A DNA stretch of 64,000 nt from an uncultured virus (IMG/VR IMGVR_UViG_3300034102_001074) (lineage: Duplodnaviria > Heunggongvirae > Uroviricota > Caudoviricetes), in the IMG/VR virus record IMGVR_UViG_3300034102_001074; one strand, given 5' to 3'. This document shows positions 4,690-64,000 of this stretch, in pieces (the first letter of the stretch is position 1; the number at the start of each line of letters is the position of its first letter). A program made the translations under genes and the position numbers. Below the pieces are notes generated by a model that was not told the origin of the DNA, did no database searches, and worked only from the letters and a program-made list of their open reading frames with translations.

Positions 4690-4951
4690 TTGACATTGCC
4701 TCCATCGCCAAGTATCTTTTATTTTTTTTGTTTTTAGAATCACATACTGAGCAAGTGTCATCAGAGTTGTATCTACTCAAAGTTGATCCGCAACCACAAA
4801 GTCTTTCAAGACCGTTTAGCCTTGCTTTTTTCTGGTAGTACTTTTCCATAATTCTTTTGTTTGTTGCAATGCGACAGCATTCTCCAGAACAATATTTTTG
4901 ATTATGAGTTTTTGCATCAAACTTTAAGTTGCATTCTTTACATACTTTCAT
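4661..4951 (-). CDS. Cys-rich zinc-binding protein
   Basis: CKEC...YCSGEC, CGCG and CSVC motifs. Confidence 0.7.
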   Translation of the reverse strand: MKVCKECNLKFDAKTHNQKYCSGECCRIATNKRIMEKYYQKKARLNGLERLCGCGSTLSRYNSDDTCSVCDSKNKKNKRYLAMEAMSNVISSTKKV

Positions 4952-5724
4952 GCTTGTCTAATTTCTAATGGGACAATTTTGTGTCTTCCGTCAGGCTTTT
5001 CAAAACAAACTTCTTTAACTGGACAATAGGTGCATGGAGCTTTGTCTCCCTTAAATGGACGCTTGATGTTTTTCTTTTCTTCCCAAGCAGCACGAACTTC
5101 TTTCATCCAGTCAAAGATATAGTCTACATAATCTAAGTTTTCTGGTGACATTACCATTGGAATTACAGTAATCTCGTGAGTGTTCTTGTTCTCATACAAA
5201 AAGAATCCTTCTTCCGCACCAGTTACCTTCATGTAAATAAGCAATTGAACTACATGGCTATCTGCACCAGTTGAAGTATCTTTTCTTAGAGTATATTGGT
5301 CATCTTTAATTGTTTTAATTTCTCCAACAATCTCTTCACCCTCAACATCTAAAATTAAATCTATAAAGCCACGAATTGGTGGGCTGTCTAGTTTAATCTC
5401 ACGCTCTGATTCTTTTAGATATCCAGTTTTTGCAATAACCTTTTCAAGCCTTGTGTGTGCATCTGTACCGTTATCCATTGCAGCAACGCCTTGAGCGTTA
5501 AACGTTTCTTTAAAATCTGCACCGTCAAAAGCAATTGACCAATATCTAGGACACTTACCGTGACCATATCCAACTGTTGATGGAGAGAAGGTAGTTTTCT
5601 TTCTATGAATATATCCAGTTTTTCCTTCTAGGTAAGCTTTTCCAATTGCAAGTCTAAACTTTTTTGCATCCAGTTTTGTGTTTCTTGGCTTCTTTGTTAA
5701 TGTTCCAATTAAGTTTCTAGCCAT
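4948..5724 (-). CDS. Cas4-like / PD-(D/E)xK exonuclease
   Basis: KCPR, GTDAH, GFID...GEIKT, QLLIY and C-terminal CTYCPVKEVC (split Fe-S cysteines). Confidence 0.85.
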   Translation of the reverse strand: MARNLIGTLTKKPRNTKLDAKKFRLAIGKAYLEGKTGYIHRKKTTFSPSTVGYGHGKCPRYWSIAFDGADFKETFNAQGVAAMDNGTDAHTRLEKVIAKTGYLKESEREIKLDSPPIRGFIDLILDVEGEEIVGEIKTIKDDQYTLRKDTSTGADSHVVQLLIYMKVTGAEEGFFLYENKNTHEITVIPMVMSPENLDYVDYIFDWMKEVRAAWEEKKNIKRPFKGDKAPCTYCPVKEVCFEKPDGRHKIVPLEIRQA

Positions 5725-13136: not shown

Positions 13137-14372
13137 TTAGGTTGAGTCATCACTTGGGTCATATACTTCTGAAAACTTTCCTTTATCAAAGTCTGCTACC
13201 ATTACGAAGTCTCCCAAAAATCCATGACGATTTTTTCTAAACGCCACTTCAAGAGCATCGCTATTTGCTTTACGACCCATTGCAAGAACCCAGTCAGCAT
13301 CGTAAGCAATTTGTCGTGACCAAGCCACCTGACCAAGCTGTGGTACAGACTCCAAATCTGAGGCATCATCGGGCGTAGCAGAGGCGATTGCAACAACTGG
13401 TATCTGTTCTGAGATAGCCAATAATTTAAGCTCTCTAGATAGATTCTTTATTTTAACAGTCTCATTTTGAGAAGATCCAGAATTGTCTGTCATAAGTTGT
13501 AAGTAATCAATAAATACAATGTCTGGCTTATACTGGTCAATCTTGGCTCTTACAACATTTGGATTTACTTCGCTTCCACCGTCATTAGAGATAATCTTAA
13601 ATGGTGGTTTGCCTTCTAAGTTTTCTTTTGCCCAAGCCTTAAACTCATCTTGATTTACACGACCAGAACTTAAGGCACGATGTGACCATTTACCATCTCC
13701 AATAATTGCAAAAATTCTATTACGAACTTCCTGCTCTGTCATTTCTAAAGAAAGGATCATTGGGGTGCGACCATTCTTCCAAGCCTGAACAGCAAAATAA
13801 AGTGCTAACCAAGACTTACCAATTGCAGGATACGCAAGAAGAACTCCAAGTTGTCCCTTAGAAATTCCCATTGGAAGACAAACATCAAATGATGCAATGT
13901 TAGATCGAATACCTACATCACCATTCATTGCTGCTTCTCTTTGTTTATCAAAGTATGCGATAGCATCATCAACATCTGTTACATCAATGTCTCTTACCTT
14001 TGCAGTAATTCTTGATAGAGAAGAAATATCTGAGTTAAGAGAAGACAGTGCCTTATTAGACTCATTGTCTTGTAAAAGTTGTGCAGCCTTCTTTACAGTT
14101 GATCTAAGAGATTCGTCAAGAAAGGTTTCCTTCAATCTATTAACGTGATAAATCGTTGGTCCAGAATCATTAGACGGTTCAAAGTCTCTAAACCTAGTTG
14201 CAATAAGATTCTTGTCTGGAATTTGACGAGTCTCGTTATAGTATTCTTTTATAAAGTCCCAAACATCTGACGTGCTTTTAAGCATTGAGTCAATGTTGTT
14301 TTCAAATAGCACATGAATATCTTTATTCTTGCAAGCAGCTGTAATAACATCTACTTCCTCACGCATTCCCAT
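13137..14372 (-). CDS. dnaB: DnaB-like replicative helicase
   Basis: Walker A AYPAIGKS, LSLEM, FIDYLQLM, SRELKLLA, DADWVL and KNRHG. Confidence 0.93.
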   Translation of the reverse strand: MGMREEVDVITAACKNKDIHVLFENNIDSMLKSTSDVWDFIKEYYNETRQIPDKNLIATRFRDFEPSNDSGPTIYHVNRLKETFLDESLRSTVKKAAQLLQDNESNKALSSLNSDISSLSRITAKVRDIDVTDVDDAIAYFDKQREAAMNGDVGIRSNIASFDVCLPMGISKGQLGVLLAYPAIGKSWLALYFAVQAWKNGRTPMILSLEMTEQEVRNRIFAIIGDGKWSHRALSSGRVNQDEFKAWAKENLEGKPPFKIISNDGGSEVNPNVVRAKIDQYKPDIVFIDYLQLMTDNSGSSQNETVKIKNLSRELKLLAISEQIPVVAIASATPDDASDLESVPQLGQVAWSRQIAYDADWVLAMGRKANSDALEVAFRKNRHGFLGDFVMVADFDKGKFSEVYDPSDDST

Positions 14373-14694
14373 TTAGATACTCCTCACGCAATTTTGCTGT
14401 TTCTTTTCTACGCTCTAGTCTTAGGCGTTCGTCACGTTCTTTTTCTTTTAAAGTTGAAATAATGGTGTCTACATTGTTGTAAAACCAAGCAAGGGGATGA
14501 CCCTCTTTCTGTAAAGTAAAGTAGTATTCTAAAGCCTTGTCTATTTGGTCCAACTGGTAATCTTCAATAATTGAAACCGCTGCCCATTTTTCTTTGTACT
14601 TGTTTATGTTTGGCTTTATGTTATATTTCTTTTCATACAACTTTGCATAGTTGTTTAAGAAAATATATGCTAGCTTTGCTTTATCCGCTGTCAC
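14359..14694 (-). CDS. Hypothetical protein upstream of helicase
   Basis: 111-aa coupled ORF. Confidence 0.7.
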   Translation of the reverse strand: MTADKAKLAYIFLNNYAKLYEKKYNIKPNINKYKEKWAAVSIIEDYQLDQIDKALEYYFTLQKEGHPLAWFYNNVDTIISTLKEKERDERLRLERRKETAKLREEYLNGNA

Positions 14695-14903: not shown

Positions 14904-15186
14904 TACTGTCTCCCTGGCTACTTGTAAAACCAATCATACCATATCTTGACGATTTGTCAAAATCCTTTTCTTCCGAAAGAAATCTAGAAAGTGTTAGCCA
15001 ACCTTCAACTGCATTAATTAAAGAGTCTACATCTTTCTTTTTTGTTGCAATTTTTGATGCCTGTGCTAATGTTTCTGCTGCACCAATCAATGCAGTATCT
15101 TCTGAAAGCTCAGAACCAATAAACTTTTCTAGTTCTGTCATTTTTATTTTTTTATGTCTAGCCACTAGAACTCCTCTGCTTTCCAA
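14875..15186 (-). CDS. Hypothetical protein
   Basis: ORF fills the operon; start position uncertain. Confidence 0.55.
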   Translation of the reverse strand: MESRGVLVARHKKIKMTELEKFIGSELSEDTALIGAAETLAQASKIATKKKDVDSLINAVEGWLTLSRFLSEEKDFDKSSRYGMIGFTSSQGDSNESKGNNNG

Positions 15187-15665
15187 ATAGGAACATAGGT
15201 TCCATCTTCTTTTCTTACATATAGCATTTGCCTAAGATTTAATTTTGCTTCTAGTTCTTCACGACTTGGAACCCTTGAAGATATTATCATGCCGTCTTTT
15301 CTGGGTCTGCCTATGTGAACTCCAGCAAAATATTCTCTAAACTCAAATATATTTTCTGTAGAAAAATAATATGTAGACTTATTGTTTGACCATATCAGTT
15401 TTGGTTTTGAAACAAGACCGTTCTTCATAGCAAACCTAAGTCTATCTGGATGCCTATTTAAAGATCTTGAAACTTCGCCTATTCTATAACAAGGTTTTTT
15501 AAATTCTTTATAATCATGATAAGAAAATGTTGCTTGAGTTTTTGTTTCCATATTAAACAAATAAACAATACCTTTTGGTCTATCTATTCTAACAACATGG
15601 TGCACGTCACCATTTATAAAGCACTTTTTCTTAACAGGCTTTATTGTCCCATTGACGAGTACCAT
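15165..15665 (-). CDS. Putative DNA-binding protein (MerR-like HTH)
   Basis: YRIGEVSRSLNRHPDRLR resembles a MerR HTH; contains a GRPRK AT-hook-like motif. Confidence 0.6.
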   Translation of the reverse strand: MVLVNGTIKPVKKKCFINGDVHHVVRIDRPKGIVYLFNMETKTQATFSYHDYKEFKKPCYRIGEVSRSLNRHPDRLRFAMKNGLVSKPKLIWSNNKSTYYFSTENIFEFREYFAGVHIGRPRKDGMIISSRVPSREELEAKLNLRQMLYVRKEDGTYVPIWKAEEF

Positions 15666-51912: not shown

Positions 51913-52231
51913 TGCTAAACAACTCTCTCCAGTTTTCTGTATCGCCATAAGGTGTCAATCCTTCAGCCATTCTTTCAATATCTTCTCTAGCCTGTGTATC
52001 TGTTGCTCTGCCAACTCCAGGCATAAATTTTGCAGTTCCTTCTGGCTTACCCCAATATGCTGCAGCATCTGCAAGTGCTTTCATTTTTGAAATATCATAC
52101 TGGATGGATGGGACATTTAGAGTATTGCCATCATTGTCCATAAATGGTTCTCCATTTGGCAGGACCCATACATAAATTCCAAGAGATGACTTGCTTTCTA
52201 CAACACTTAGCTTGTTATTTGATTTTGACAT
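51899..52231 (-). CDS. Hypothetical protein upstream of portal
   Basis: 110 aa with a leaderless promoter. Confidence 0.7.
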   Translation of the reverse strand: MSKSNNKLSVVESKSSLGIYVWVLPNGEPFMDNDGNTLNVPSIQYDISKMKALADAAAYWGKPEGTAKFMPGVGRATDTQAREDIERMAEGLTPYGDTENWRELFSNGRK

Positions 52232-52255
52232 ACCACAATGATACCATAATCAAAG

Positions 52256-55200
52256 CTAGAATGGAGGCATTCTTGTAGATGCAAATGGTACAGCGGAAGA
52301 TTTATAATGAATTACCTTTTTTTGAGCAATAGTTGTTGTGTAATTATTTAAACTATCTCTCATAAAATAATAACCCCTATTGTCCGATCCTCCAGACACA
52401 TATACCACCTGGTTATTTGAAGGATTTGTTGATTTAGTAACATATATATAATCATCTGTGATGGACGTTACTGTATATATTCCATTATCTGCACTATTTG
52501 TTCCTTGATTTTTAAGCAAAATTACAGTTCCTACTATTAATTGAAATCCGTCCATTCTTTTTAAATCTCCAATTCCATTAATAGATATTCTATAAGCTGA
52601 TCCAGAAACTGGAACAACTGAATATATCATAGTCGAAGCAACATTTATTAATAAATTAGAAAATGAAGACTGTGATCCTATGGGCTGAAAAGTTCCTAGT
52701 GTAGATTTATAGTCTGAATCATTAATATACATAGCAACCTGAGATGCAGATCCATACCCTCTTCTTTCTGTAAAAACACTAAATGCATTGCTATAAATTC
52801 TTTTTACACTATTTGCATTTGGTCTTCCGCTTGTAATTAAAAGATTATCTAGTTGCCAAGGACTTCCACCAAATCCAAATAACAAAGGGTTAGTGTTTGA
52901 TAAAGATTGACCATCATTAAATACAATTGCATAATGATTCCAAATATTAATATTATATGTTTTTGCAGAGTCGTAAAGATCTCCATTAATATATAATTTT
53001 GCAACTCCTGTTGATGGATCTAGTATGCCACTAGCTCTAGTTGACCATTTAACTTCTGTAGTACCGTATTTTAATAAATTAAAATCAGTTACTTCAGACC
53101 TTGCTCTTCCAGCAAACATAATTGAATAAACTGTGCCAGACTCATTTGTTGGGGTTATGGTTAGTGGTAAACTTATATAGTTTGATCTTTCAAGCACACC
53201 AGTTCCAGTTTTTCCAACCATGACTCCAGTAGTAAATGATCTGTATAAATCTGTTTTTCCTTTAATTTCAGGAATGCTTTTAAATGGCAATTGAGAAGAT
53301 GATATTTCCTGAGAATACAGTCTTGGATTTGCACCTCTACTATCAGTATTGATCTCTAAATATTTCAAAGAACCGTCTGTTTTTGTTTCGTAAGAATATA
53401 TTCTTAAATAATTTAAAACTCCAGGATATCTTTCATTATCAAAAGATCTTAGAGTTCCTTTAACATTAAAATATAATTCGCTAACTTTTGGTGGACTGGA
53501 AGAAAATACTGGAACATGCAAATATCTAATATCTATTGCATTTGCTTCTGTAATAACATCTGTTGTTACACCGTTTACTGTTTTTTCAACAGAGTATTTA
53601 ACTTCTGCAACATTAGATCCAACCTCTGCTGCAATTGGAAATCTTAAATCGTTTACTGAAGAGTTTAAAAATTCTGTAGGAACTAAATCTGCAAGAGAAA
53701 ATCCAAATTCAAAAGTTCCATTTACTGCAACACCAAATCTTTCTTCTGATTTAATTGGATATGCTTGATAAAGCAAAGACTTATATCTATCTGGATAGTC
53801 AGCAATGTCCGTTATTCCAGTTAAGTCTTCTTCATGAATATCTATTTGCCAAAGCTTTCCGTCAAATCTTTTTGTTTGAGACAAAGAAATTCCTGGAGGA
53901 ACTGTTTCATTGAAAAATACTGGTGCTGTTCCAATTCTAATATATCCATCTTGAAGTGGAAATATGCTTATAGAAGAAGACGTAGTTGTATTAATTCCAG
54001 TAGAAGAATCTTTTATTCCAATCTTAATTTTTCCATCGGAAATAACATACAGGGAAATAGTAAAAGTGTTTCCTTGTAAAATAAAGTTACCACCAGAAAC
54101 TCCTCCTATCATTTGTGTCTCTGCTGCTCCATTTATAGACTGCTTTAGATTAATAACGCTTCCAGTTATTGTTGCAGATATTGAGCTATTTGAAGATTTT
54201 GACCCAATATAAAATAGTTGCTGCTGATTGCTTCCATGTCCAGTAGAAGGTATAGAAAATTTAAAAGATATTCCAGAAGTTTTACTGTTTGTTATTTTTT
54301 CATAGTTTGGTATTTCTACATAAGAATAGGCATTGTTTGGAAACTGTATAAAATCAATAGAGGATTCTGTTCCAAACATATCTGACTTTGTTACATTTTG
54401 TGTAGATGATAAATATATATCTACTTTTGGTTGAGGCTTTGTAACTAGATTGTTATTTGAAAACTCTAGTCTTTCGTAAACTGTTGATGGGTTCCATGTT
54501 GTAGAAGAAAAATAGTCTAATTTTTTTGATGGAATAGTAGATTGCATAACTAAGTCGTAAGCGGTTCCACCAAAATTTGAAGCAAGAGTTTTATTTATTG
54601 TATGACCAAGACCATAAACATAATGTCTTTTACATGCATCAAGGGATAATTGATAGTCATAAAGTGCTACTGTGTCATAAGATACAGATAGAAATGCTGG
54701 TGCTGTTGAAGTTAGTGGGGCTGGAAATTTAAATTCAAATTTTTTATCTGACTCTCCAGATGGTTTTGACAAAAACAAGTCTTTTTCAATTACAACTTTT
54801 CTTCCAGGTTTTCCATTTACAACAATCTGAATTGATGTTGGGCTGTACAAACATACAACATGAAGAGGAGTATTAAAGTTTTCAATATGTATTTCTGAAT
54901 CATAATAAGGCTTTCCATAGTCTCCAACTCTAAAAACTAAATATTCAAAGTTTTTAACATATACCCCAGTTGAAGAATTTCCAAAATTTGTATTTTCTCC
55001 TTTAAGTCTTACTACTGTAGATTCTCCAAATAATATAGATTCATCTGATCTATCAAAATCTTTTGGCAACTCTAAATTCATCCAAAACTCCAATGAACAT
55101 GATTTTGATTGTGAGGATGGTGAAAAAAACTCTAAAGATGGAACGTCAAATAACGTGTTGCTTGTAGCATAATCAGAGCTCCAAGGACCATTATTTGTAA

Positions 55201-55381
55201 TGCTTGTTACACCAGAATAAGTAATTGGTATTTTGCCTTTAAAAAACTTTCCAGTTTTATATGACCCATTATTGGCTGATCCAGAAAAAGAATCTGCAAG
55301 AACAGAATTTGTTGAATCTGGCTCATCTAAAGCCCAAACAACTTTTGGATTATCTACTAAAATAAGACTGGAATAAGACAT
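52256..55381 (-). CDS. Large virion protein with ConA/LamG-like domains (1041 aa)
   Basis: ILVDNP..VWALDE, SLEFW, HVVCLY...IVVNG and WNHYAIVF; C-terminal ILLKNQ...DNGIY tail-fibre motif. Confidence 0.7.
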   Translation of the reverse strand: MSYSSLILVDNPKVVWALDEPDSTNSVLADSFSGSANNGSYKTGKFFKGKIPITYSGVTSITNNGPWSSDYATSNTLFDVPSLEFFSPSSQSKSCSLEFWMNLELPKDFDRSDESILFGESTVVRLKGENTNFGNSSTGVYVKNFEYLVFRVGDYGKPYYDSEIHIENFNTPLHVVCLYSPTSIQIVVNGKPGRKVVIEKDLFLSKPSGESDKKFEFKFPAPLTSTAPAFLSVSYDTVALYDYQLSLDACKRHYVYGLGHTINKTLASNFGGTAYDLVMQSTIPSKKLDYFSSTTWNPSTVYERLEFSNNNLVTKPQPKVDIYLSSTQNVTKSDMFGTESSIDFIQFPNNAYSYVEIPNYEKITNSKTSGISFKFSIPSTGHGSNQQQLFYIGSKSSNSSISATITGSVINLKQSINGAAETQMIGGVSGGNFILQGNTFTISLYVISDGKIKIGIKDSSTGINTTTSSSISIFPLQDGYIRIGTAPVFFNETVPPGISLSQTKRFDGKLWQIDIHEEDLTGITDIADYPDRYKSLLYQAYPIKSEERFGVAVNGTFEFGFSLADLVPTEFLNSSVNDLRFPIAAEVGSNVAEVKYSVEKTVNGVTTDVITEANAIDIRYLHVPVFSSSPPKVSELYFNVKGTLRSFDNERYPGVLNYLRIYSYETKTDGSLKYLEINTDSRGANPRLYSQEISSSQLPFKSIPEIKGKTDLYRSFTTGVMVGKTGTGVLERSNYISLPLTITPTNESGTVYSIMFAGRARSEVTDFNLLKYGTTEVKWSTRASGILDPSTGVAKLYINGDLYDSAKTYNINIWNHYAIVFNDGQSLSNTNPLLFGFGGSPWQLDNLLITSGRPNANSVKRIYSNAFSVFTERRGYGSASQVAMYINDSDYKSTLGTFQPIGSQSSFSNLLINVASTMIYSVVPVSGSAYRISINGIGDLKRMDGFQLIVGTVILLKNQGTNSADNGIYTVTSITDDYIYVTKSTNPSNNQVVYVSGGSDNRGYYFMRDSLNNYTTTIAQKKVIHYKSSAVPFASTRMPPF

Positions 55382-55397
55382 GGGTACCTCTTATACA

Positions 55398-57341
55398 TTA
55401 TACAGTTTTAGCGGTACCAAAATCACTTATATCACAAGCACCTGCAACACATGCAAGATCCTGAACACTAGTAGTTCCGTCAAATGTTTCATAGATTTCA
55501 AGCCACTTCCAATCAAGGTCTGCAGGAGTTTCAGAAACTAGTGCTTCATATTCTTCCTTTGTGCATTCTTGATATGGTGCTTGCTGATAAGTATGCTCTG
55601 AATAAGGTAAGAAAGATACGCCAGACATTTCATCAATATGGTCATATACCCAAGCACCTACTGCCATCCATTCACTTTCTTTAACAGAAACAGTAATAGA
55701 AGGCTTATGCTCTGCCCAATGTCTTTGGTAGGTAAGCCAGATATCTAAATGCTGTACGGCAGTTAAATCTTGACGAAGTGTTGCACCTTCTGGTGCAGCA
55801 ATAGGAAATGAAAATACCATAGTGTCGTTTGGCTTCATTACATCTGGCTCATGCTTAATTCCCATATCTACTAAAAATGATGTAATTGGGTCTTTCATAT
55901 CTCCACGAATTGTTCGTGTGTAATATTGAGAGTGCCATGGATGCATACCTGAAGATGCATTTACTAATTGAGAAACTGTGCCAGATGGCTTAACGCATGT
56001 AATTGCTGCTGCCTGGTTTACTCCAATTTCTTTAGCCCACTTTGCATTAACTTTAACTGCATGTTCACGCATTTCATCAAGCCACTTAGAAAGCTCTTCT
56101 ACGCCTCTAGAACCATTCAGGACAGGATGAGATAGCTGACCTGTTAGTGAGACACCAAGTAAACTTTCTTCTTCTGAGTTCTTCTGCCAGATTTTTCTTA
56201 GGTACTTAAATCTAGTAAATGAGGATTGAACGGTTCCAAGAATAGTTGCCAATTCAACCTTGTCTTTTAGTTCCTCAAGAGTGTCTGTATCACGAACAAT
56301 AACTTCTGTAAGGTTACAGAACTGGTAAGGGCGTAGAATAATCTCAGAACATGGGTTTGTTCCAAAGTCTACAGTATGATCTCTACGACCATTCTTTTCT
56401 GCAACATTTTGTGCTGCTGCACGACTAAAGATTCCACGCTCTCCTGACTTTGAGTCATATAATGCTTTCCACTCATCCATAAATACTTCCATGGTTGGAC
56501 GAGTTCCATAAACTGCAGAATTATTTGCAAGAGCTCTTTGACCTGAATATTCCCACCATGAACCAGACTTTGCTGCTGCCATATTTCTATCTTCTAGGTC
56601 TGAAAGTGAAATCATTGCTGACCTACGAACTCCACCAACAACTACGACTTCTGCAATCTTACACATTAAGTCATGTGCCTCTAGTGGTGTAAGCTTTCTA
56701 CCTGCTGCACCCTTAACAATTGCAATGGAAAACTTAAACAAACGATCTAATGGATCTGGACCAGATGCACGACCACCAAAAGTCTTAAGACGAGCACCTG
56801 CAGGACGAACCTGAGACATGTCCCAAGATGGAATTTGACCCTGCCATAAAAGTGCAAGAAGTTCTTTTAATGATCTAGCCCATCCTGCTTTGGAATCTTC
56901 TACAACAATAGTGGTATCTGTTTTTTCAAAATGTTCGGAAATTTCTGGCAACTGATTTACATAACGTGACTCTACTGAGTATCCAACACCAGTTCCACAC
57001 ATAAGAATATACATAGCTTCATCAAAAGATCGGAGAGAATCTACTGGAAGATAAGAGCAGTTGTAGAGGCATGTGCTATCACGATCTAAGGCAGGTCCTG
57101 CAGTCATTAAGCCTCTCATGGATGGCATTACCCTAGTTGTTAAAATAGCCTCTGAAATTTGTTTCTTAATCTTGTCAGACATAGAATATCCATTGTGCTT
57201 TTCCAATGCCTCGAACATGTATGTGGTATAACGACTTACTGTTTCGTCCCAGTTCTCTCTACGATTCTCTGCTTCCATCCATCGTGCATATCGTGTTTTG
57301 TGAATTACCTGCTGATAAGCGGTGGGTAAAACATAAGTCAT
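55398..57341 (-). CDS. nrdJ: Class II (adenosylcobalamin-dependent) ribonucleotide reductase
   Basis: PSMR, YNCS, GTGVG, VVGGVRRSA, TNPCSEI, FCNLTE, CVKPSGT and a C-terminal CVAGAC; no small subunit gene nearby. Confidence 0.93.
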   Translation of the reverse strand: MTYVLPTAYQQVIHKTRYARWMEAENRRENWDETVSRYTTYMFEALEKHNGYSMSDKIKKQISEAILTTRVMPSMRGLMTAGPALDRDSTCLYNCSYLPVDSLRSFDEAMYILMCGTGVGYSVESRYVNQLPEISEHFEKTDTTIVVEDSKAGWARSLKELLALLWQGQIPSWDMSQVRPAGARLKTFGGRASGPDPLDRLFKFSIAIVKGAAGRKLTPLEAHDLMCKIAEVVVVGGVRRSAMISLSDLEDRNMAAAKSGSWWEYSGQRALANNSAVYGTRPTMEVFMDEWKALYDSKSGERGIFSRAAAQNVAEKNGRRDHTVDFGTNPCSEIILRPYQFCNLTEVIVRDTDTLEELKDKVELATILGTVQSSFTRFKYLRKIWQKNSEEESLLGVSLTGQLSHPVLNGSRGVEELSKWLDEMREHAVKVNAKWAKEIGVNQAAAITCVKPSGTVSQLVNASSGMHPWHSQYYTRTIRGDMKDPITSFLVDMGIKHEPDVMKPNDTMVFSFPIAAPEGATLRQDLTAVQHLDIWLTYQRHWAEHKPSITVSVKESEWMAVGAWVYDHIDEMSGVSFLPYSEHTYQQAPYQECTKEEYEALVSETPADLDWKWLEIYETFDGTTSVQDLACVAGACDISDFGTAKTV

Positions 57342-57450
57342 TAAAATCATCTCCGTTTAAAAAATATTTGATTCGCTGAATAGCGAGTACCTCTATTCTA
57401 CACCATATTGGTCACAGTTCCAAAATCGGGGTGTGTGATAAGATTAAGTC

Positions 57451-57678
57451 ATGATAACAATACAAGAATTACATATTTACAATAAATTACAATCAGCTGG
57501 TGTAGTTGCAAAAATTAAATGTCCAGGAAATCCAGATCATATGTATATGCTTCCTTGGTTTACAGAATCAGAAGAACCAGTATTTAAGTGCATAGCTTGT
57601 AATACAATATTACATTTAGGTAACGATTTAATAAAAAAGATTAAATTCCTAGTCAGTGAACTAGGAAGTAGTGTATAA
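57451..57678 (+). CDS. Small zinc-binding protein
   Basis: CP...H...CIAC; leaderless TGATAAGAT-N6-ATG promoter; divergent from nrdJ. Confidence 0.75.
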   Translation: MITIQELHIYNKLQSAGVVAKIKCPGNPDHMYMLPWFTESEEPVFKCIACNTILHLGNDLIKKIKFLVSELGSSV

Positions 57679-57757
57679 TTGTTATTTATATAATATAGAT
57701 AGTTTTAAAGTATTATTATATTAATAATATAATTTATATTAATTATATAATTATATA

Positions 57758-58099
57758 TTAGGAAGCAGACGAAACATCTGCAGTAACTAAAATTGGACCA
57801 GTTAAAATTGTAGTCTTATTAGTTCCATTTGTCATTTCAACATCATAGACATAACTTTTATTTGGAACTAGATTTGCAGATTCAGTTGAAGGCAAAGTAA
57901 CTTTGATAACTCCACCAAGCAAACTTTCTTTTGTAACTGTAAGTGTTGCAGCTACTGTAGTCTTACCTTTTTCTTTTATCTGAGCAATAAAAGTTGAACT
58001 AGTAATATTTAAGAAAGTTGTCGATCCAGTTTTCAGTGTCATTTGAAAAGCAAAGGTATCTCCACGGTAAATCTTAAATGATTTAAAGCCTGGAAGCAT
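57758..58099 (-). CDS. BppU-N-like virion protein
   Basis: IYRGDTF...G.I.VTL...YVYDVEM...ILTG.I.V pattern. Confidence 0.7.
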   Translation of the reverse strand: MLPGFKSFKIYRGDTFAFQMTLKTGSTTFLNITSSTFIAQIKEKGKTTVAATLTVTKESLLGGVIKVTLPSTESANLVPNKSYVYDVEMTNGTNKTTILTGPILVTADVSSAS

Positions 58100-59649
58100 T
58101 AGCCAACAACTACCGTCTTAAGATCTGTAATCGAACTATTTGTTGTTACGGTTACGGTGTTTGCATCTGTAACTACGATTGCAGCATCTACCTGAGCACC
58201 TGCAAGCCAGCATTGTACTGTTACGTCTGAAGTTGCAAGACCATGTGTGATGGTATGTGTTGTTCCAGTTGTTGTTGTAACATACTTTCTAGCAATTGCA
58301 ATTTCTGAACCAGCAATACCTGCACTCCACTTGTCACTTGTTTCATTCCAAATAAGTGATGCATTTGTAGAATTTCCTCGCTCAACTTCAAGACCTGCAT
58401 TCAAAGAAGGAGTTCCAGTTACATTTGAATTAAGTAAGAACAAGTTATCTTCAACATTAATTGTTGAAGTTGAAACTGAATTAATTGCACCAGTAACGTC
58501 AAGGTCTCCAGTTACTGTAAGAGTTCCTCCAATTGTTACATCATTTGGGAGACCAATTGTGATAGCTCCTGTGTATGGACCAGATCCAGTACCTGCTGAC
58601 ACTTCAATTTCATTTGTAGTTCCAGCAATACTTGTTACACCAGAGTTAGTTAGGGTAATAGTGTCTGTTCCTGCATTTGTGGTTACTGTTAATCCAGTAC
58701 TTCCAGCAATTGTTAATGTGTCAGTATTAGAATCTGCGACAACGCTATCCTGACCAGATACAGCAATTGTCTTAAAGATATTTTGATCAGAACCCTTGTC
58801 TGCGTTTGTAATTGTTACATCGCCAGTAGCCTGGTCAATTGTTATTCCTGTTCCTGCAACAATTTCTGTTACACCAGTGTTAGTAAACGCTAGTGTTCCA
58901 GCACCACCTGTATTATCTGTATAGGCTACAGAAATTCCAGAGTGTGTTGCAGTTGTTATTAGATTTGCAGCAGTATCTTCAACGGCTTCACGGAAATCTG
59001 AAATTGTTGTAGAAGCGTGAGTATGAGTATCATTTCCAACTGTTGCTTCAAAACTTACGTTTCCAAGATTTGTTACAGTTCCGCTACCAGTTACATCTCC
59101 AGTAAGAGTAATTGAGAAATCTGCTACGTCAAAGTCAAGGGTATTATCGGAATCATCATAGGATACTGAAATTCCACTTTCGGTATTTGATGTTACCATT
59201 CCTCCAACTGCGTCAGCAACTGCTTCATTAAAGTCTGAAATTTTTGTTGATTCAAGGCTAGGAATGTCTGCAGCTACAAGTGATCTAAATGTTGGAATAG
59301 CTGCTGTTGAGCCAGAACCTGGACCAGCAAGAACAGTGTTAACTGCTGCTGTGTTCCATTCAAATGCTAGTGTTCCTGAAGCGTTAGCAGGAGATCCTGA
59401 TACTGTAAATAGGTCTGGGGCATCTAGAGAGATAGAAATTGTTGGAACGTCATCGGTATAAGCGATTGTCTTCCATGCAGTTCCATTGTAAAGTCTTAGA
59501 TGATTCTGATCACCACCTGAGCCAGTAAAGTAAATAATACGACCAGAAGTTAGGTCGGAGCTTGGATTTGTTGAAAAATCCTCAAAGATAAATCTTTTTG
59601 CCTTGTTTAATCCAAGGTCTAAATCAACTGTAAACAGTCTTGATGCCAT
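58099..59649 (-). CDS. Fibre-like virion structural protein
   Basis: Repeats such as DFNEAVADA/DFREAVEDT, SGISV.Y.D and GVT.I.AG; AGLEVERG...WNETSDKW. Confidence 0.7.
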   Translation of the reverse strand: MASRLFTVDLDLGLNKAKRFIFEDFSTNPSSDLTSGRIIYFTGSGGDQNHLRLYNGTAWKTIAYTDDVPTISISLDAPDLFTVSGSPANASGTLAFEWNTAAVNTVLAGPGSGSTAAIPTFRSLVAADIPSLESTKISDFNEAVADAVGGMVTSNTESGISVSYDDSDNTLDFDVADFSITLTGDVTGSGTVTNLGNVSFEATVGNDTHTHASTTISDFREAVEDTAANLITTATHSGISVAYTDNTGGAGTLAFTNTGVTEIVAGTGITIDQATGDVTITNADKGSDQNIFKTIAVSGQDSVVADSNTDTLTIAGSTGLTVTTNAGTDTITLTNSGVTSIAGTTNEIEVSAGTGSGPYTGAITIGLPNDVTIGGTLTVTGDLDVTGAINSVSTSTINVEDNLFLLNSNVTGTPSLNAGLEVERGNSTNASLIWNETSDKWSAGIAGSEIAIARKYVTTTTGTTHTITHGLATSDVTVQCWLAGAQVDAAIVVTDANTVTVTTNSSITDLKTVVVG

Positions 59650-59681
59650 GATAATCAGTTTTCCCTATTGAAGTAACAGGG

Positions 59682-60143
59682 CTAAGTTAGATACGCTGTA
59701 CCGCTTGAAGCACTGTTCATTACAATTTTAACAGTATTACTGTTCAAATACACTAAGTCAGTTTCAAGAATTCTACTTGCATTGTCTAGGACAGTAACAT
59801 TTGGATAAAAGTTTAAATTATGGTTAATTGTCCATTCATTAGAAATAGAGGTTTGGGTGTGGACATGTCTAACATGATTTACTGGATTTGAGCCAATATC
59901 TGGATAGTCAATTACCACCACTCCAGTCTTTCCATTAACTGAAGTTACTGCACTAATAGCCTCAACTACGGAAAGCTCAACATTAAAGTTTTCTTGTGAG
60001 GCAACCACATTAGCCTGACCAGTTTCAAAGTCATATGTGGTGGTTGATCCAACAGTACTAATTCCATCATTAATTACTGGAGCTAAAATTAGGGATGCAA
60101 GAAGATTATCTTCTTCTACTATGATGGATGTAATATCAGACAT
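59682..60143 (-). CDS. Virion fibre-associated protein
   Basis: VTSVNGKTG and WTINHNLNFYPNVTV motifs. Confidence 0.65.
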   Translation of the reverse strand: MSDITSIIVEEDNLLASLILAPVINDGISTVGSTTTYDFETGQANVVASQENFNVELSVVEAISAVTSVNGKTGVVVIDYPDIGSNPVNHVRHVHTQTSISNEWTINHNLNFYPNVTVLDNASRILETDLVYLNSNTVKIVMNSASSGTAYLT

Positions 60144-60150
60144 ACCACGA

Positions 60151-61092
60151 TTATAGCATTAAACGAGCTTCAACAGAATCTAAATGGTCCCTTACTACCT
60201 TTTCCCATTTCCACTCTTTGTGAACATCTAGTGCTCTTTTAGACTGAAGCTCTAATATGCTTTCGATATTTTTTTCAGTGTGTTGCATAAGAGTAGCAAA
60301 ATGGTTTAGGTCAGGTCTAAACATTTTTCCAGGATGTATTAGTTGCCAAGGATTATATACAAGTTCAGAATTAATAATTAGTTCTGGACAGTGACGCTTA
60401 TAGTCGCACCATCCATCTGTCATAACTACTGGCATACCTGTGGCTAGTGCTTGTAGTGGCATAAGACCAAAGCCTTCTCCCCAAGAAGGATAAAGTAGGG
60501 CGTGGTGCTGACCAACAAAGCTAGCAAGTTCTGAATAGGTAACGGTATCTACAACAACATTAATGTTTGGCTCATTAATTTCAAATTCACATGCAGAGTA
60601 AGCTTTAACAGTTAGCTCTACATCTTTTCTTCCAGCGTATAGTTCAAGAAATGTATTAATTGTTTCTGGTAAATTTTTTCTGTAAGCGGGATGACCCATA
60701 TGAAGAAATTTTATTTTGTCATCTACTTTTCTTTCAATAGGAGCCCAGGTATCATCAATGCCATGGGGAAACACATAAATTTCTTTGTCTGTAAACTTAC
60801 TAAATATTTCTTTGCAGAATTGATTAGGTACCCACATTTCATCAAGGTGAGAAATGTACTCTTCCCACATAGGCTGAAGCTCGGTAGACTCCCAGGCTGT
60901 GTATCCAATTTTGTAGGAATCTTTTCCATGAAACTTATAGAATTGGGGATGGCTAAAAGTAACCTCAACTGGGTTTTCTCTTTCAATTAAAAGACTGTGG
61001 CTTGTCTTACCAATATTGGTAATTATCTTATGTGTGGCATAGCCATACCCAGTCTTGATATTGCCATCGCAATTATTAAAACCAAACTTCAA
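60151..61092 (-). CDS. Glycosyltransferase family 4 (GT-B)
   Basis: TGYG, YTAWES, RKN and PSWGEGFGLMPLQALATGMPV. Confidence 0.9.
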   Translation of the reverse strand: MKFGFNNCDGNIKTGYGYATHKIITNIGKTSHSLLIERENPVEVTFSHPQFYKFHGKDSYKIGYTAWESTELQPMWEEYISHLDEMWVPNQFCKEIFSKFTDKEIYVFPHGIDDTWAPIERKVDDKIKFLHMGHPAYRKNLPETINTFLELYAGRKDVELTVKAYSACEFEINEPNINVVVDTVTYSELASFVGQHHALLYPSWGEGFGLMPLQALATGMPVVMTDGWCDYKRHCPELIINSELVYNPWQLIHPGKMFRPDLNHFATLMQHTEKNIESILELQSKRALDVHKEWKWEKVVRDHLDSVEARLML

Positions 61093-61106
61093 GACTTTAC
61101 TTTCTG

Positions 61107-61406
61107 TTAGTTGCGTTCTAGTTTATCTAAACGCTCTTCAATACGACCAACGGCATCTTTAATGGATGTACCGTGGTTTGGTCTCATTTCAAAAGATATG
61201 CAAGCAATTTCTTCTTCCATAAATCTTAGTCTTTCTTGCATTCCAGGACGACCATCAAATCCTGGTCTTGGCTCTTCACCAAAGTAATCATCTAGGAAGT
61301 GTATAAATCTTTTTACAAGCTTTGTAACTTTATATAGTCCAACACCAATAACTCCAATTGCAGTTATTGTTGCAGCAATGGTCATCAACCATTCATTTGG
61401 AGTCAT
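61107..61406 (-). CDS. Membrane protein (one TM segment + coiled coil), possibly a lysis module
   Basis: N-terminal hydrophobic helix; PNHGTSIKDAVGRIE motif; next to the holin-like gene. Confidence 0.65.
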   Translation of the reverse strand: MTPNEWLMTIAATITAIGVIGVGLYKVTKLVKRFIHFLDDYFGEEPRPGFDGRPGMQERLRFMEEEIACISFEMRPNHGTSIKDAVGRIEERLDKLERN

Positions 61407-61428
61407 CGTCTATACACTTCCACAAAGA

Positions 61429-61770
61429 CTACTTTGAAGTAGTCTTCTTTGCTGTAGATTTTTTAGCAGGTGCCTTAGTTGCCTTTTTTGCAGGTGCAGC
61501 TGGTGCACTTGCAGTTTTTGCTTTTGGGGCTTGCTTTACTACCATTTCTGCAATATCAACTGCTTGCTTGGCTAGTGATTCTGGGGTTGCAGTCTTACCG
61601 AATGCAATATCGTTCTTATTCATGTAGCGAATTGCTACTGGTGCAAATGCTGCGACTAGAGCAGATAAATAACTCTGCCATTCAGTAACACCTGCTAAGT
61701 ACAATGCAATTGCTGCTGCCAGGAATGCTCTTCCGTATGACTGTAGCATTGCCATCTGTGACTTTGACAT
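61429..61770 (-). CDS. Holin-like protein with Ala/Lys/Pro-rich tail
   Basis: SYGRAFLAAAIALY..G and a second hydrophobic helix ending P..IRY.N..D.AFG; start at 61770 after GGAG. Confidence 0.6.
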   Translation of the reverse strand: MSKSQMAMLQSYGRAFLAAAIALYLAGVTEWQSYLSALVAAFAPVAIRYMNKNDIAFGKTATPESLAKQAVDIAEMVVKQAPKAKTASAPAAPAKKATKAPAKKSTAKKTTSK

Positions 61771-61888
61771 ATATTTCTCCAATGTTATTCCCGTTTGGGA
61801 TTGTACTTATCATTATACAGCAAAAAAAAATAAAATTTCGGCGGTGGCGTTCGGCGAAAAGAGAACAAAACCCAACTCCCTATATAAC

Positions 61889-61918
61889 TTGACACAAGAT
61901 AAAAAGAGTTGCTATAAT
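61889..61918 (+). promoter_or_regulatory. Consensus sigma70/SigA promoter
   Basis: TTGACA-18 nt-TATAAT with extended -10 TG, upstream of 61945. Confidence 0.85.
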
Positions 61919-61944
61919 AGGTAACTACGAACAAAGGATTATAT

Positions 61945-62190
61945 ATGTCAGAAGAACAAATTGACACAGAAGTAAAGAATATGAATGATAATCTAGGAAC
62001 TATCCTATATATCATGTTAGGTCGAATTTATGATCTTCTGGTACTAATTGCTGATAGTCAAGATAAAGGTGAAGATGTATTAAAGCTTATGGAATTACAT
62101 CGTCAAGGTAATATTATGTCACCTCTACCTGCATTGAATGTACCAGATTTTGAATCAGAAGAAAAGTCTTCCACATCCCCCGAAAAATAA
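61945..62190 (+). CDS. Hypothetical protein (81 aa)
   Basis: Consensus promoter and AAAGGA RBS upstream. Confidence 0.8.
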   Translation: MSEEQIDTEVKNMNDNLGTILYIMLGRIYDLLVLIADSQDKGEDVLKLMELHRQGNIMSPLPALNVPDFESEEKSSTSPEK

Positions 62191-62269
62191 AATTGTAAAA
62201 ATAAAATGAGCAGTTTTATGTCTTTACTCAGGACACTTACCCATCCCAAGGTAAACCTATAGCTTTTAG

Positions 62270-62677
62270 CTACTTGATAGAGATAGCTTTTGGCTTTTTC
62301 TCTTCAGGGATATTCCTTGTAATTATAATGGATAAAATACCATCATTTAGTTTTGCATCCGAGACTTCCATATATTCTGCTAAAGCAAATGTTCTTTTGA
62401 ACTTACGCCCTGCAATTCCTTTATGGATATATTCATCATTTGTTTCTGGAAGTTCTCCATCTACCGTCACACAGCAATCTTCTTCAGTAATAGTTAGATT
62501 TGACTTGTTGTATCCAGCTACTGCCAATTCAATAACGAAGTTGTCTTCACCGATTTTTTTAACGTTATATGGAGGAAAGCTAGCTGCATTTGTTTTTGCT
62601 AAAGTTTCTAGCTTTGGGAAAAAACTTTCCCATCCGATCATGTATGGGTCATTTGCCCACGTTGTTGTATATTTCAT
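62270..62677 (-). CDS. Small heat shock protein (Hsp20/IbpA-like)
   Basis: FPPYNV, IELAVAGY, YIHKGIA.R.F.R.F.LA, A.LNDGIL.I and PEEKKP..I.I. Confidence 0.95.
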   Translation of the reverse strand: MKYTTTWANDPYMIGWESFFPKLETLAKTNAASFPPYNVKKIGEDNFVIELAVAGYNKSNLTITEEDCCVTVDGELPETNDEYIHKGIAGRKFKRTFALAEYMEVSDAKLNDGILSIIITRNIPEEKKPKAISIK

Positions 62678-62727
62678 TTTTTGCTCCTTTTAAGCGAGTT
62701 AAATTCACACCCCATAAGGCAATGTGT
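62678..62727 (-). promoter_or_regulatory. ROSE-like RNA thermometer in hsp20 5' UTR
   Basis: mRNA CUCGCU-UAAA-AGGAG: the UCGCU motif pairs with the SD, leaving a bulged G; TATAAT at 62734-62739. Confidence 0.7.
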
Positions 62728-62810
62728 ATACATATTATACCCTAGATTGTATCCAATATATTATTGTTATACAAACGTTATCTGTTTGTTACCATTTTGT
62801 TATATATTAA

Positions 62811-62826
62811 TGTGATGTAGGTCACA
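62811..62826. promoter_or_regulatory. CRP/GlxR-type palindromic site
   Basis: TGTGA-tgtagg-TCACA, a perfect TGTGA-N6-TCACA match. Confidence 0.6.
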
Positions 62827-62976
62827 TATATATAATCCTATAAAATGTGAATGCAATTTTATATTTTAGATCTGCAGCTAGACCCATTTTCACCAAAATG
62901 TGAATGAGATTTTTATTTGTATGATGCCGAATTTTCAAAAAAGCTTTCAAAAAACATAGTGAGCACATACGAGAAC

Positions 62977-63016
62977 AAAAAAAATCACTAGACATTTAAT
63001 CTAGTGAAATTTTTTT
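62977..63016. terminator. Bidirectional intrinsic terminator
   Basis: A-run, TCACTAGA-7 nt-TCTAGTGA, T-run. Confidence 0.75.
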
Positions 63017-63055
63017 AAGCATAATGCCTAATTATTTTTGAAGCATAATGCGGTT

Positions 63056-63130
63056 TTAGAAATTATCTATGCTTGCTAGGTATGCACCAATCATAATTAG
63101 TACCATAATGAATCCAAATAGTAATTCCAT
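63056..63130 (-). CDS. Putative micro membrane peptide (24 aa)
   Basis: MELLFGFIMVLIMIGAYLASIDNF; GAGGGG RBS. Confidence 0.5.
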   Translation of the reverse strand: MELLFGFIMVLIMIGAYLASIDNF

Positions 63131-63133
63131 TGA

Positions 63134-63322
63134 CTACCCCTCGATTGCTTCGATAACTATTGCACCAATGGCAGATAGTAAACCAATGGCAACGGTTACT
63201 ATCATTACATTGACAGACATTCCATTTAGTCCAATGACTAATAATTGTAATTCAAGTAGCAGGGCAGGTAATGAGAATACCGCAACGCCTAGCAATACAT
63301 CACGCAAGTGAAACAAAAACAT
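63134..63322 (-). CDS. Small two-TM membrane protein
   Basis: 62 aa, hydrophobic; GAGG RBS within the upstream gene end. Confidence 0.65.
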   Translation of the reverse strand: MFLFHLRDVLLGVAVFSLPALLLELQLLVIGLNGMSVNVMIVTVAIGLLSAIGAIVIEAIEG

Positions 63323-63324
63323 AA

Positions 63325-63435
63325 TTAGTCCTCACACATAATGCAGATAGAGGATTCAATTTCAAACGGTGCTAACTTGTCACCGCACACTAGGCAGGTT
63401 GCCTTAGTGATTTGTTCTAATGCTAATTCATTCAT
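63325..63435 (-). CDS. Tiny zinc-finger protein (36 aa)
   Basis: MNELALEQITKATCLVCGDKLAPFEIESSICIMCED; GAAAGG RBS and a TGTC-box promoter upstream. Confidence 0.7.
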   Translation of the reverse strand: MNELALEQITKATCLVCGDKLAPFEIESSICIMCED

Positions 63436-63467
63436 TTGATTTAGCCTTTCTTGTTGTTGTTAGTTTT

Positions 63468-63490
63468 AACTTACCATAGGGGTCTGACAA
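63468..63490 (-). promoter_or_regulatory. TGTC-box promoter, copy 1
   Basis: TTGTCAG-acccct-ATGG-TAAGTT on the minus strand. Confidence 0.65.
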
Positions 63491-63505
63491 TTTTTGGGTG
63501 GGTGC

Positions 63506-63592
63506 TTATTGGTTGATGATGAACCAACCAACAAACACGCTGTACAATGCAACTATTGCTAGTCCGATTGCATCTAATGTTGTAATTTCCAT
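63506..63592 (-). CDS. Putative micro membrane peptide (28 aa)
   Basis: MEITTLDAIGLAIVALYSVFVGWFIINQ; strong GAGGAGGT RBS. Confidence 0.65.
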   Translation of the reverse strand: MEITTLDAIGLAIVALYSVFVGWFIINQ

Positions 63593-63620
63593 TTCTTACC
63601 TCCTCTTATCTAATAGTCTA

Positions 63621-63643
63621 AACCTAACACACCCCACCGACAA
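63621..63643 (-). promoter_or_regulatory. TGTC-box promoter, copy 2
   Basis: TTGTCGG-tggggtg-TGT-TAGGTT on the minus strand. Confidence 0.65.
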
Positions 63644-63688
63644 TTTCTGCCAAATAGGGCGTGTTGTAGGTAAACATTTGGTGAACAA

Positions 63689-63908
63689 TAATCCACAGCC
63701 TTATCCACACGTTATCCACAATCCACAGGTTATCCACAGGTACTTATCCACAAGTTATCCCCAAGCTGTGGATAAAAAAATCCGCCGACCCGTTTTCCAC
63801 AGGTTATCCACAGGCTTACGATTATGATTAAAAACACAGTGAAAATTCACAGGATATCCACAGGTTATACACATGTTATCCACAGAGTTATACACAGGCT
63901 GTTGATAA
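63689..63908. repeat. DnaA-box array (oriC-like)
   Basis: TTATCCACA at 63701, 63712, 63730, 63744, 63804 and 63876, and reversed at 63767; TTWTNCACA variants at 63793, 63865 and 63888; one-mismatch copies at 63689, 63755, 63854 and 63900. Confidence 0.9.
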
Positions 63909-63965
63909 GTTGTGAATTATTGTTTACCTAATGTTCATCTAAGACATACCCTAAAATGGGCAAAA

Positions 63966-63988
63966 CTGTCAGACCCCCCTGCTAAGAT
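63966..63988 (+). promoter_or_regulatory. TGTC-box promoter, copy 3 (rightward)
   Basis: CTGTCAG-acccccc-TGC-TAAGAT on the plus strand. Confidence 0.65.
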
Positions 63989-64000
63989 GAAATCATAAAG

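Follow-up and report, generated by a model that had tools for sequence, protein, structure and literature searches.

The window analyzed here is a 64,000-nucleotide stretch from an uncultured lake virus, and it carries 14 DnaA boxes at 63689-63908, between two back-to-back early promoter motifs. PHROGs searches on the 59 open reading frames of the window identified terminase, resolvases, a Cas4-like exonuclease, a RecA-like protein, a DnaE-type polymerase, SSB, primase, DnaB, tail, head and portal proteins, ribonucleotide reductase and Hsp20. No replication initiator family was found among these 59 frames, in agreement with the preliminary description, which had listed DnaB, primase, SSB and DnaE and no recognisable initiator.

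By its capsid, the phage is related to the Streptomyces BE/BK phages, which makes it a candidate Stanwilliamsviridae-like actinophage, with 38-42% identity to these best matches and 35-36% to Rhodococcus phages. At the DNA level, cultured phages share only short stretches with the query (16 records), each covering less than 7% of it and falling mostly on box runs. All 20 runs containing the region are lake or freshwater samples, WhiB is encoded in four of the five related records, and the host is therefore probably a freshwater actinobacterium. A host search via Hsp20 returned two loci, both non-actinobacterial.

The features of the locus, and one gene elsewhere in the window, are as follows.

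63134-63322, 63325-63435 and 63506-63592, minus strand: small leftward ORFs of 62, 36 and 28 aa, respectively, below the leftward promoters
63468..63489, minus strand: another PafBC-type promoter motif directed leftward, the second, with no associated boxes
63621..63642, minus strand: leftward PafBC-type promoter motif, TGTCGG-N10-TA-N3-T
63655-63697 and 63911-63953: 43-bp inverted repeat (79%), two opposed copies of one promoter-upstream module
63670..63686, minus strand: 11-bp direct repeat (GTTCAC..GTTTAC) between the boxes and the leftward promoter, candidate OmpR/PhoB-family site
63689..63763, plus strand: left run, six boxes with at most one mismatch (63689, 63701, 63712, 63730, 63744, 63755) and a two-mismatch box at 63719
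63767..63775, minus strand: perfect inverted box ending the left run, 3 bp from box 63755
63784..63813, plus strand: cassette-start motif with a tandem box pair (63793, 63804), matching the start of a downstream module of the related locus L004 at 29 of 30 bases
63854..63896, plus strand: right run, four boxes at 11, 11 and 12 bp (63854, 63865, 63876, 63888)
63900..63919, minus strand: two inverted boxes, 63900 (one mismatch) and 63911 (two mismatches to TTATCCACA, one to TTWTNCACA)
63922..63938, plus strand: mirror 11-bp direct repeat (GTTTAC..GTTCAT) between the boxes and the rightward promoter
63967..63988, plus strand: rightward PafBC-type promoter motif, TGTCAG-N10-TA-N3-T, the first of 16 that head early cassettes beyond the window
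14359..14694, minus strand: 111-aa gene overlapping the dnaB start, possible helicase loader with a weak match to SPP1 G39P

Seven perfect copies of TTATCCACA occur in the 64-kb window, all of them at 63701-63884 (184 bp), six on the plus strand and one on the minus strand (63767), whereas shuffled windows contain a mean of 0.84 and a maximum of 3 (100 shuffles). Three further exact matches to TTWTNCACA (63793, 63865, 63888) bring the exact total to ten, and four copies carry one mismatch to TTATCCACA (63689, 63755, 63854 and, inverted, 63900). Beyond these 14, two-mismatch copies lie at 63719 on the plus strand and 63911 on the minus strand. Our recount thus reproduces the inventory first reported (seven perfect copies with one inverted, three TTWTNCACA matches and four one-mismatch copies).

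Spacing is 11 bp in 63701/63712, 63744/63755 and 63793/63804, and 11, 11 and 12 bp along 63854/63865/63876/63888. The long runs are each closed by an inverted box 3 bp away (63767 and 63900), as had been noted before. The earlier suggestion that the boxes share one helical face holds within the runs, at 11-12 bp, but not between them, where gaps of 18, 14, 26 and 50 bp intervene. A coding role for the array was set aside, the 109-aa ORF that covers it being without a PHROG match.

Several independent copies establish that the array belongs to the phage. Viral locus L003, possibly from the same source as the window, matches positions 52001-64000 at 99.99% and continues for 8 kb with small-gene cassettes, a tRNA and a DUF932 gene. 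A 420-nt contig of run X1 crosses the array without any difference, and metagenome loci L398 and L400 contain the same 14-box array; of 13 metagenome matches to the hub flank, nine were dropped as chance matches. A diverged copy with 13 boxes is present in L390, which is about 92% identical over 3.8 kb. The L003 continuation, the X1 contig and the L398 and L400 arrays exclude a chimera with a bacterial oriC, and the same evidence, together with the diverged ortholog in L390, excludes assembly slippage. The objection that the contig might be chimeric at this point is thereby answered.

The boxes also bear the marks of selection. In L390, substitutions relative to the array affect 3 of the 126 positions in boxes, in each case position 5, and 10 of the 94 positions in spacers (Fisher p 0.018). 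The ten inner boxes are conserved too, under the same selection as the outer ones. Near promoters, 325 box contexts were compared; 185 have a perfect box and 140 a box with one mismatch, with 89 of the 140 variants at positions 3 or 5. The DnaA consensus is TT(A/T)TNCACA, in which positions 3 and 5 are free (bioRxiv 10.1101/866236). A search that detected DnaA domain IV in 12 of 14 control genomes found none in the five related records, three of them at least 90% complete. The boxes are likely read by a host protein, namely DnaA, because the variants follow its consensus and DnaA domain IV is absent from all five records. This part of the preliminary description is now well supported, also by the L390 substitutions.

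A phage-encoded protein could instead read the sites, which would then be mere lookalikes of DnaA boxes. The phage does encode small unknown proteins and a weak MerR-like helix-turn-helix protein that might serve such a role. We consider this highly improbable, as the tolerated positions are those of the DnaA consensus, domain IV is lacking as described above, and the same 9-mer is found in unrelated phages.

The array occupies the gap between motifs 63642(-) and 63967(+). These motifs have the layout of PafBC-dependent promoters, tGTCgg(N10)tA(N3)T, including their spacing (PMC8635444), and are predicted to act as promoters. Across 20 kb of the early arm, TGTC[AG]G-N10-TA-N3-T, with A or G allowed at position 5, matches 18 times against 0.42 by chance, 16 times rightward and twice leftward. 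The phage copies are mostly TGTCAG, with A at position 5 in 91%, and their recognition by host PafBC is predicted; DnaA boxes do not belong to the motif as described (PMC8635444). No WYL domain was found in the five related records. A sigma-70 scan gave 7 sites against 10.4 expected by chance, none of them flanking the array. The placement of the array at a promoter divergence, as first described, stands, the divergent promoters being TGTC[AG]G motifs and not sites of the sigma-70 consensus.

Between boxes and promoter, each half of the hub has an 11-bp direct repeat. Its best unit, the first of 63670..63686, equals GTTCACC, the core of the S. coelicolor PHO box (PMC4415409), which makes the repeat a candidate OmpR/PhoB-family site. 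The module order is the same on both sides: boxes at -55/-56 and -67, the direct repeat at -44/-45, and the promoter motif. Accordingly, the first two boxes of the left run lie 55 and 67 bp upstream of the leftward motif, and inverted boxes 63900 and 63911 lie 67 and 56 bp upstream of the rightward one.

The geometry extends across the clade, and it constitutes the main feature that the preliminary description had not included: box position, orientation and helical phase are tied to PafBC-type early promoters. We assembled 158 loci (32 + 46 + 80), with loci L046-L166 and cultured-phage loci left out, giving 799 promoter regions and 550 after dereplication. In these 550 regions, sense-strand TGTGGATAA boxes, directed away from the promoter, are most frequent at -67 and -56/-55, with 76 in the -75..-51 bin, 43 in -100..-76 and 6-16 per farther 25-bp bin. 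Boxes in the opposite orientation, pointing to the promoter, peak at -90 to -110 (73 in -100..-76 and 43 in -125..-101). Reversed-letter controls are flat, with 17 and 21 occurrences against 210 and 222 real boxes. The outer boxes of the window, at -55/-67 and -56/-67, thus occupy the commonest offsets among the 550 regions.

Phasing is strongest at a period of 11 (R 0.57, n=135), and the pattern persists in 150 loci chosen by promoter pattern alone, with R 0.43 in 444 regions at 80% dereplication and 0.50 in 340 regions at 60%. The regions counted are related by descent, so that p-values are not independent and the statistics overstate independence. The offset of the nearest box varies with the kind of site that lies between it and the promoter: of 34 promoters with a box at -52..-58, 19 have the direct repeat, against 10 of 455 without a near box, and a CRP-type site is present in 14 of 19 promoters whose nearest box is at -71..-80. 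The 50 bp closest to the promoter contain only 15 of 432 boxes, a distribution more in line with activation than with occlusion. DnaA is evidently not needed for this promoter type, since 356 of the 550 regions have no box at all and, here, 14 of the other 15 rightward promoters are without one; those 15 have a single one-mismatch box in total.

The tie of the boxes in position, orientation and phase to PafBC-type promoters points to transcription control. We give about an even chance to the reading that the array is a host-DnaA platform controlling the first early transcription, and not a copy of the host replication origin. The array would serve as a docking platform for host DnaA inside a control hub of the early region, each half of which may be regarded as one module of DnaA boxes, OmpR/PhoB-type direct repeat and PafBC-type promoter. 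DnaA occupying the sites one and two helical turns upstream of this repeat would modulate, and most likely stimulate, the first leftward and rightward early transcripts. Early expression would then depend on the availability of DnaA, as in a growing host, and on PafBC, which is activated by single-stranded DNA. The ten inner boxes, arranged head-to-tail at 11-12 bp and closed by inverted boxes, may raise cooperative loading of DnaA; any withdrawal of DnaA from the origin of the host would then be secondary and would increase as phage copies accumulate. What the sequences show directly is the boxes, the pattern of conservation and selection on them, and their geometry to the promoter motif; binding by DnaA and PafBC, promoter activity of the motif and the sign of the effect are deduced.

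A functional parallel is phage lambda, in which host DnaA stimulates the early promoter pR, a route linked to origin activation and replication (PMC7466680); the corresponding action here is predicted from sequence. Lambda differs in being a temperate coliphage with its own initiator O and a sigma-70 promoter, and a dense array of perfect boxes is not mentioned in the account consulted. Several observations weigh against a platform for early transcription, beside the many promoters of this type that have no box. Activation would need no more than two boxes per promoter, whereas conservation extends to the ten inner ones; at three distant syntenic loci, the number of promoter-linked boxes is 0-1; and the box pairs of cultured relatives stand in a gene-free gap that has no PafBC-type motif.

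The array could alternatively be a host-DnaA-dependent replication origin, or early transcription stimulated by DnaA could open an origin close by, in a coupling like that of lambda. It resembles bacterial oriC regions with a basal unwinding system in having about 14 boxes in about 220 bp, 11-bp head-to-tail runs and two arms (PMC8287927, PMC5742627). It also sits at the divergence of two transcription arms in a window whose ORFs include no initiator family, and the tie of DnaA to origin activation at lambda pR (PMC7466680) and the box pairs that cultured BE/BK phages keep in a gene-free gap of 1.1-1.5 kb lend this view some weight. In contrast to oriC, however, the array has no conserved trios and no AT-rich element, nearly all of its boxes are near-consensus, and what closes each of the long runs is an inverted box and not unwindable DNA. 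The chromosomal context of dnaA, dnaN and gidA is absent, the array being flanked by phage promoters and, on both sides, phage genes.

DnaA-trios were searched on both strands, under the rule of at least three trios within 16 bp of a box (PMC8287927, section 13). Strict trios were found in none of the 325 box contexts on either strand, and loose trios numbered 43 and 44 against 74 and 80 in shuffles, which is below chance. A short AT-rich tract after the tandem pair 63793/63804 passes a loose NAN rule, but 4 of the 10 spacer changes in L390 fall there, so that it is not conserved, and it derives from the usual spacer of the promoter module. No AT-rich unwinding element adjoins the array, which at 60% AT is less AT-rich than the window (64%), and the weakest 40-mer of the hub, which overlaps boxes as well as the direct repeat, ranks no higher than the top 5.7%. 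By a wide margin, the least stable 40-mer in the window is 57717-57756, which consists entirely of A/T, follows a 75-aa plus-strand ORF 6 kb from the array, and could be an unwinding site or a terminator region.

A skew inflection, which had been considered a possible sign of an origin at this point, is not seen in a weak test: along the long arm of G002, G003 and G011, three near-complete relatives, skew at fourfold sites tracks the coding strand and does not switch. Two small bins in G002 are an exception, and recombination-driven or rolling-circle replication could hide a switch. The hub, moreover, has been rebuilt freely among relatives, with 0-14 boxes, and the phage encodes RecA-like, Cas4-like and resolvase genes and possibly its own loader.

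The loader candidate is the 111-aa gene at the dnaB start, which may be the helicase loader of the phage. Its model has four helices (pLDDT 82), and the best meaningful structure match is SPP1 G39P (Z 6.2, rmsd 2.8, 66 of 67 residues), tied with unrelated helical domains. Foldseek returned no match at E 0.001; language-model neighbours are Phg_2220_C (0.92) and T4 gp59 (0.88), and six homologs only were found. Three genes upstream of it lies the gene for the weak MerR-like helix-turn-helix protein (15165-15665), a match below the Pfam cut-off.

Taken together, a role as replication origin appears quite unlikely. The preliminary description had offered an origin or a DnaA sponge as alternatives; its DnaA boxes stand, and its origin is weakened by the lack of trios, AT-rich element and skew switch and by the possible loader.

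How boxes are distributed among relatives bears on the number of sites. The 62-aa ORF (63134-63322) has relatives in 46 viral loci, and hubs at the 46 syntenic loci contain 0-14 boxes, the array described here being the densest and the next highest having 8. In 19 of the 22 dereplicated loci for which 4 kb could be viewed, there are five or more promoter-linked boxes, mostly in 3-5 small clusters, and only three loci exceed ten, most relatives having 5-10; the three distant syntenic loci mentioned above fall at 0-1. In the first 4 kb, close relatives have 14 boxes here (one cluster), 8+4+2 in L168, 6+5+4 in L209 and 6+4+1 in L202. These totals of 14, 14, 15 and 11 hint that box number matters, favouring loading or titration beside a promoter role. 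Relative to L004, 0.8 kb with two downstream modules is absent here, and hub segment 63784..63813 is the 29/30-base copy of the start of one L004 module that is missing at the syntenic place. Boxes that are distributed over three to four promoters in relatives are concentrated at a single hub in this lineage, which makes DnaA titration a fair second role.

Titration might even be the main job of the array, binding or inactivating host DnaA in the manner of datA or the B. subtilis clusters and so stopping host initiation. Nucleotides and clamps would be freed, and the promoter linkage would reflect how the boxes arose. The selection on inner boxes equal to that on outer ones is in keeping with this, as are the similar box totals of close relatives despite different placement and the copying of a module start into the hub while the L004 downstream modules are missing. 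A second, unrelated arrangement of 12 boxes in 250 bp was also found in L406, a 79-kb viral contig (region around a match at 4698-5019), where it lies, separately built, behind ten same-direction promoter motifs. At datA, head-to-tail boxes support ATP-DnaA oligomers (PMC5742627). A sink, however, needs no fixed offset, orientation or phase to a promoter, most relatives fall short of such numbers of linked boxes, and 14 boxes per genome would have an effect only once the phage had replicated many times. When a B. subtilis cluster was placed on a multicopy plasmid, it bound DnaA and left over-initiation uncorrected (PMC3245932). We regard titration as the main function as rather unlikely.

The known non-origin clusters differ from the array in several respects. 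In E. coli, datA (same-direction boxes) and DARS (one opposed) act on the nucleotide state of DnaA, but they need IHF/Fis sites and exact spacings and are not expected in that form in Actinobacteria (PMC5742627). The B. subtilis clusters (sda, ywlC, yydA) are likewise intergenic groups of high-affinity boxes upstream of genes, and they both alter expression of their neighbours and restrain initiation; by this analogy, a promoter role and a sink can coexist (PMC3245932). Those clusters are chromosomal and serve the cell, whereas the boxes here belong to a lytic-type phage and stand in a divergent hub at fixed offsets to PafBC-type promoters.

Phage precedents for clustered boxes in an early non-coding region come from T5-like phages, whose terminal repeat has eight boxes at its inner end, paired with 3 bp between partners, where anchoring or pausing of DNA by DnaA is itself a hypothesis (bioRxiv 10.1101/866236). 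The two systems share conserved, phage-borne boxes, the 3-bp spacing and the same tolerated variants, and the function in T5 is putative. T5 has up to eight boxes in four separate pairs inside long inverted repeats, in contrast to 14 in one promoter-phased array here, and phage and host are unrelated.

By analogy, the hub might be an entry signal at the inner edge of a long terminal repeat, with DnaA anchoring or pausing the entering DNA. Early promoters span 10.9 kb here, close to the 11,214-bp repeat of the cultured phage Wofford, which contains that phage's early cassettes and a DUF932 gene 48% identical to the one here. Among the contig pieces listed, mean depth is greater right than left of the hub in two of three DNA runs (22 vs 12 in X1, 29 vs 20 in X2 and 8 vs 8 in X13), but contig depth is no copy number and the early cassettes are common to co-occurring relatives. 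Wofford itself has no cluster at the inner repeat edge, its pair lying about 70 bp outside the other edge, and promoter phasing would be left unexplained. The comparison weakly suggests that the hub lies at the inner edge of a terminal repeat, and we consider an entry signal very unlikely as an account of the array.

In a composite of these views, the hub would be a gate with several inputs, placed where an 11-kb terminal repeat has its inner edge. The first transcripts would require PafBC, an OmpR/PhoB-type nutrient regulator and ATP-DnaA together, with host PafBC switched on by single-stranded DNA during entry, while the closed 14-box array captures DnaA and blocks host re-initiation. If true, this would be a protein-free takeover of the host initiator with an outline common to T5; we judge the full combination unlikely.

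Ten cultured-phage records were scanned for perfect boxes. In Circinus, TunaTartare, Comrade, Wofford and Mildred21, an inverted pair or small box cluster lies in the 1.1-1.5 kb gene-free gap, a candidate region for an origin or for control; in Microbacterium phage A3Wally, three boxes stand between two early genes. Across these six box stretches, there is a single PafBC-type motif, and no perfect-box pair was found in Weasels2, Dorin, Peregrin or Tomas. The TTATCCACA pairs in the conserved gap of BE/BK phages are at L385 (Circinus 118999-119286), L386, L387, L045 (Wofford 121713-121733) and L388, and three BK phages have a further box 190-255 bp beyond the pair. In A3Wally (L374, 13739-13771), the three boxes are phased and lie upstream of an early gene, in a stretch that occurs twice (second copy 192972-192992). 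A box pair in G011 (99080-99110, L372) lies beyond the far end of the early arm, like that of Wofford.

Lytic phages with their own replisome are usually regarded as independent of the host initiator. In the literature searched, which included few subscription papers, neither DnaA boxes in actinophage promoters nor a virulent phage that titrates DnaA came to light; the T5 box pairs and lambda pR were the only phage precedents found there, and two phage genome papers give only origin predictions of the Ori-Finder type. The array, real and conserved, thus appears to be a variant of DnaA-box clusters without report in actinophages, with a predicted function. Selected DnaA boxes in phase with promoters of the DNA-damage type, in widespread lake phages, suggest that these phages read the host cell cycle before commitment, and this group perhaps stalls host replication with DNA alone. 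The hub offers a 370-bp test piece with natural variants, and cultured Streptomyces and Microbacterium phages with box pairs make the role of phage DnaA boxes, including those of T5, testable.

Further elements were observed in the early arm and its surroundings. An AT-rich gap upstream of the Hsp20 gene contains a palindrome at 62811-62826, which we take to be a perfect CRP/GlxR-type site, and a triple 11-bp direct repeat at 62766-62803. Rfam searches of L003 9500-20243 identified only a tRNA, the gene for which lies in the early arm (L003 17214-17287). After the rightward hub promoter, L003 12050-12110 forms a short leader with repeated AGCCTAGCAAATAA, common to many co-occurring phage contigs, one of them in an RNA run. 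RNA runs contain 5-6% of the words of the region, and the contigs of one such run are scraps only. In box-free cassettes, the promoter motif is preceded by a different element that also recurs (CCGAC..., GTCAAGTTACGACAC, CACGG/TGAAA), at L003 13430-13500, 14130-14200, 16230-16300 and similar spacers.

Box clusters also occur apart from this promoter type. A scan for tandem perfect boxes identified at least 121 loci labelled as viral; among the matches listed, 13 have the promoter motif, and loci without it reach 12 boxes in 250 bp. Four viral contigs (L070, L146, L160 and L162) have 10-12 boxes in 250 bp without a PafBC-type motif.
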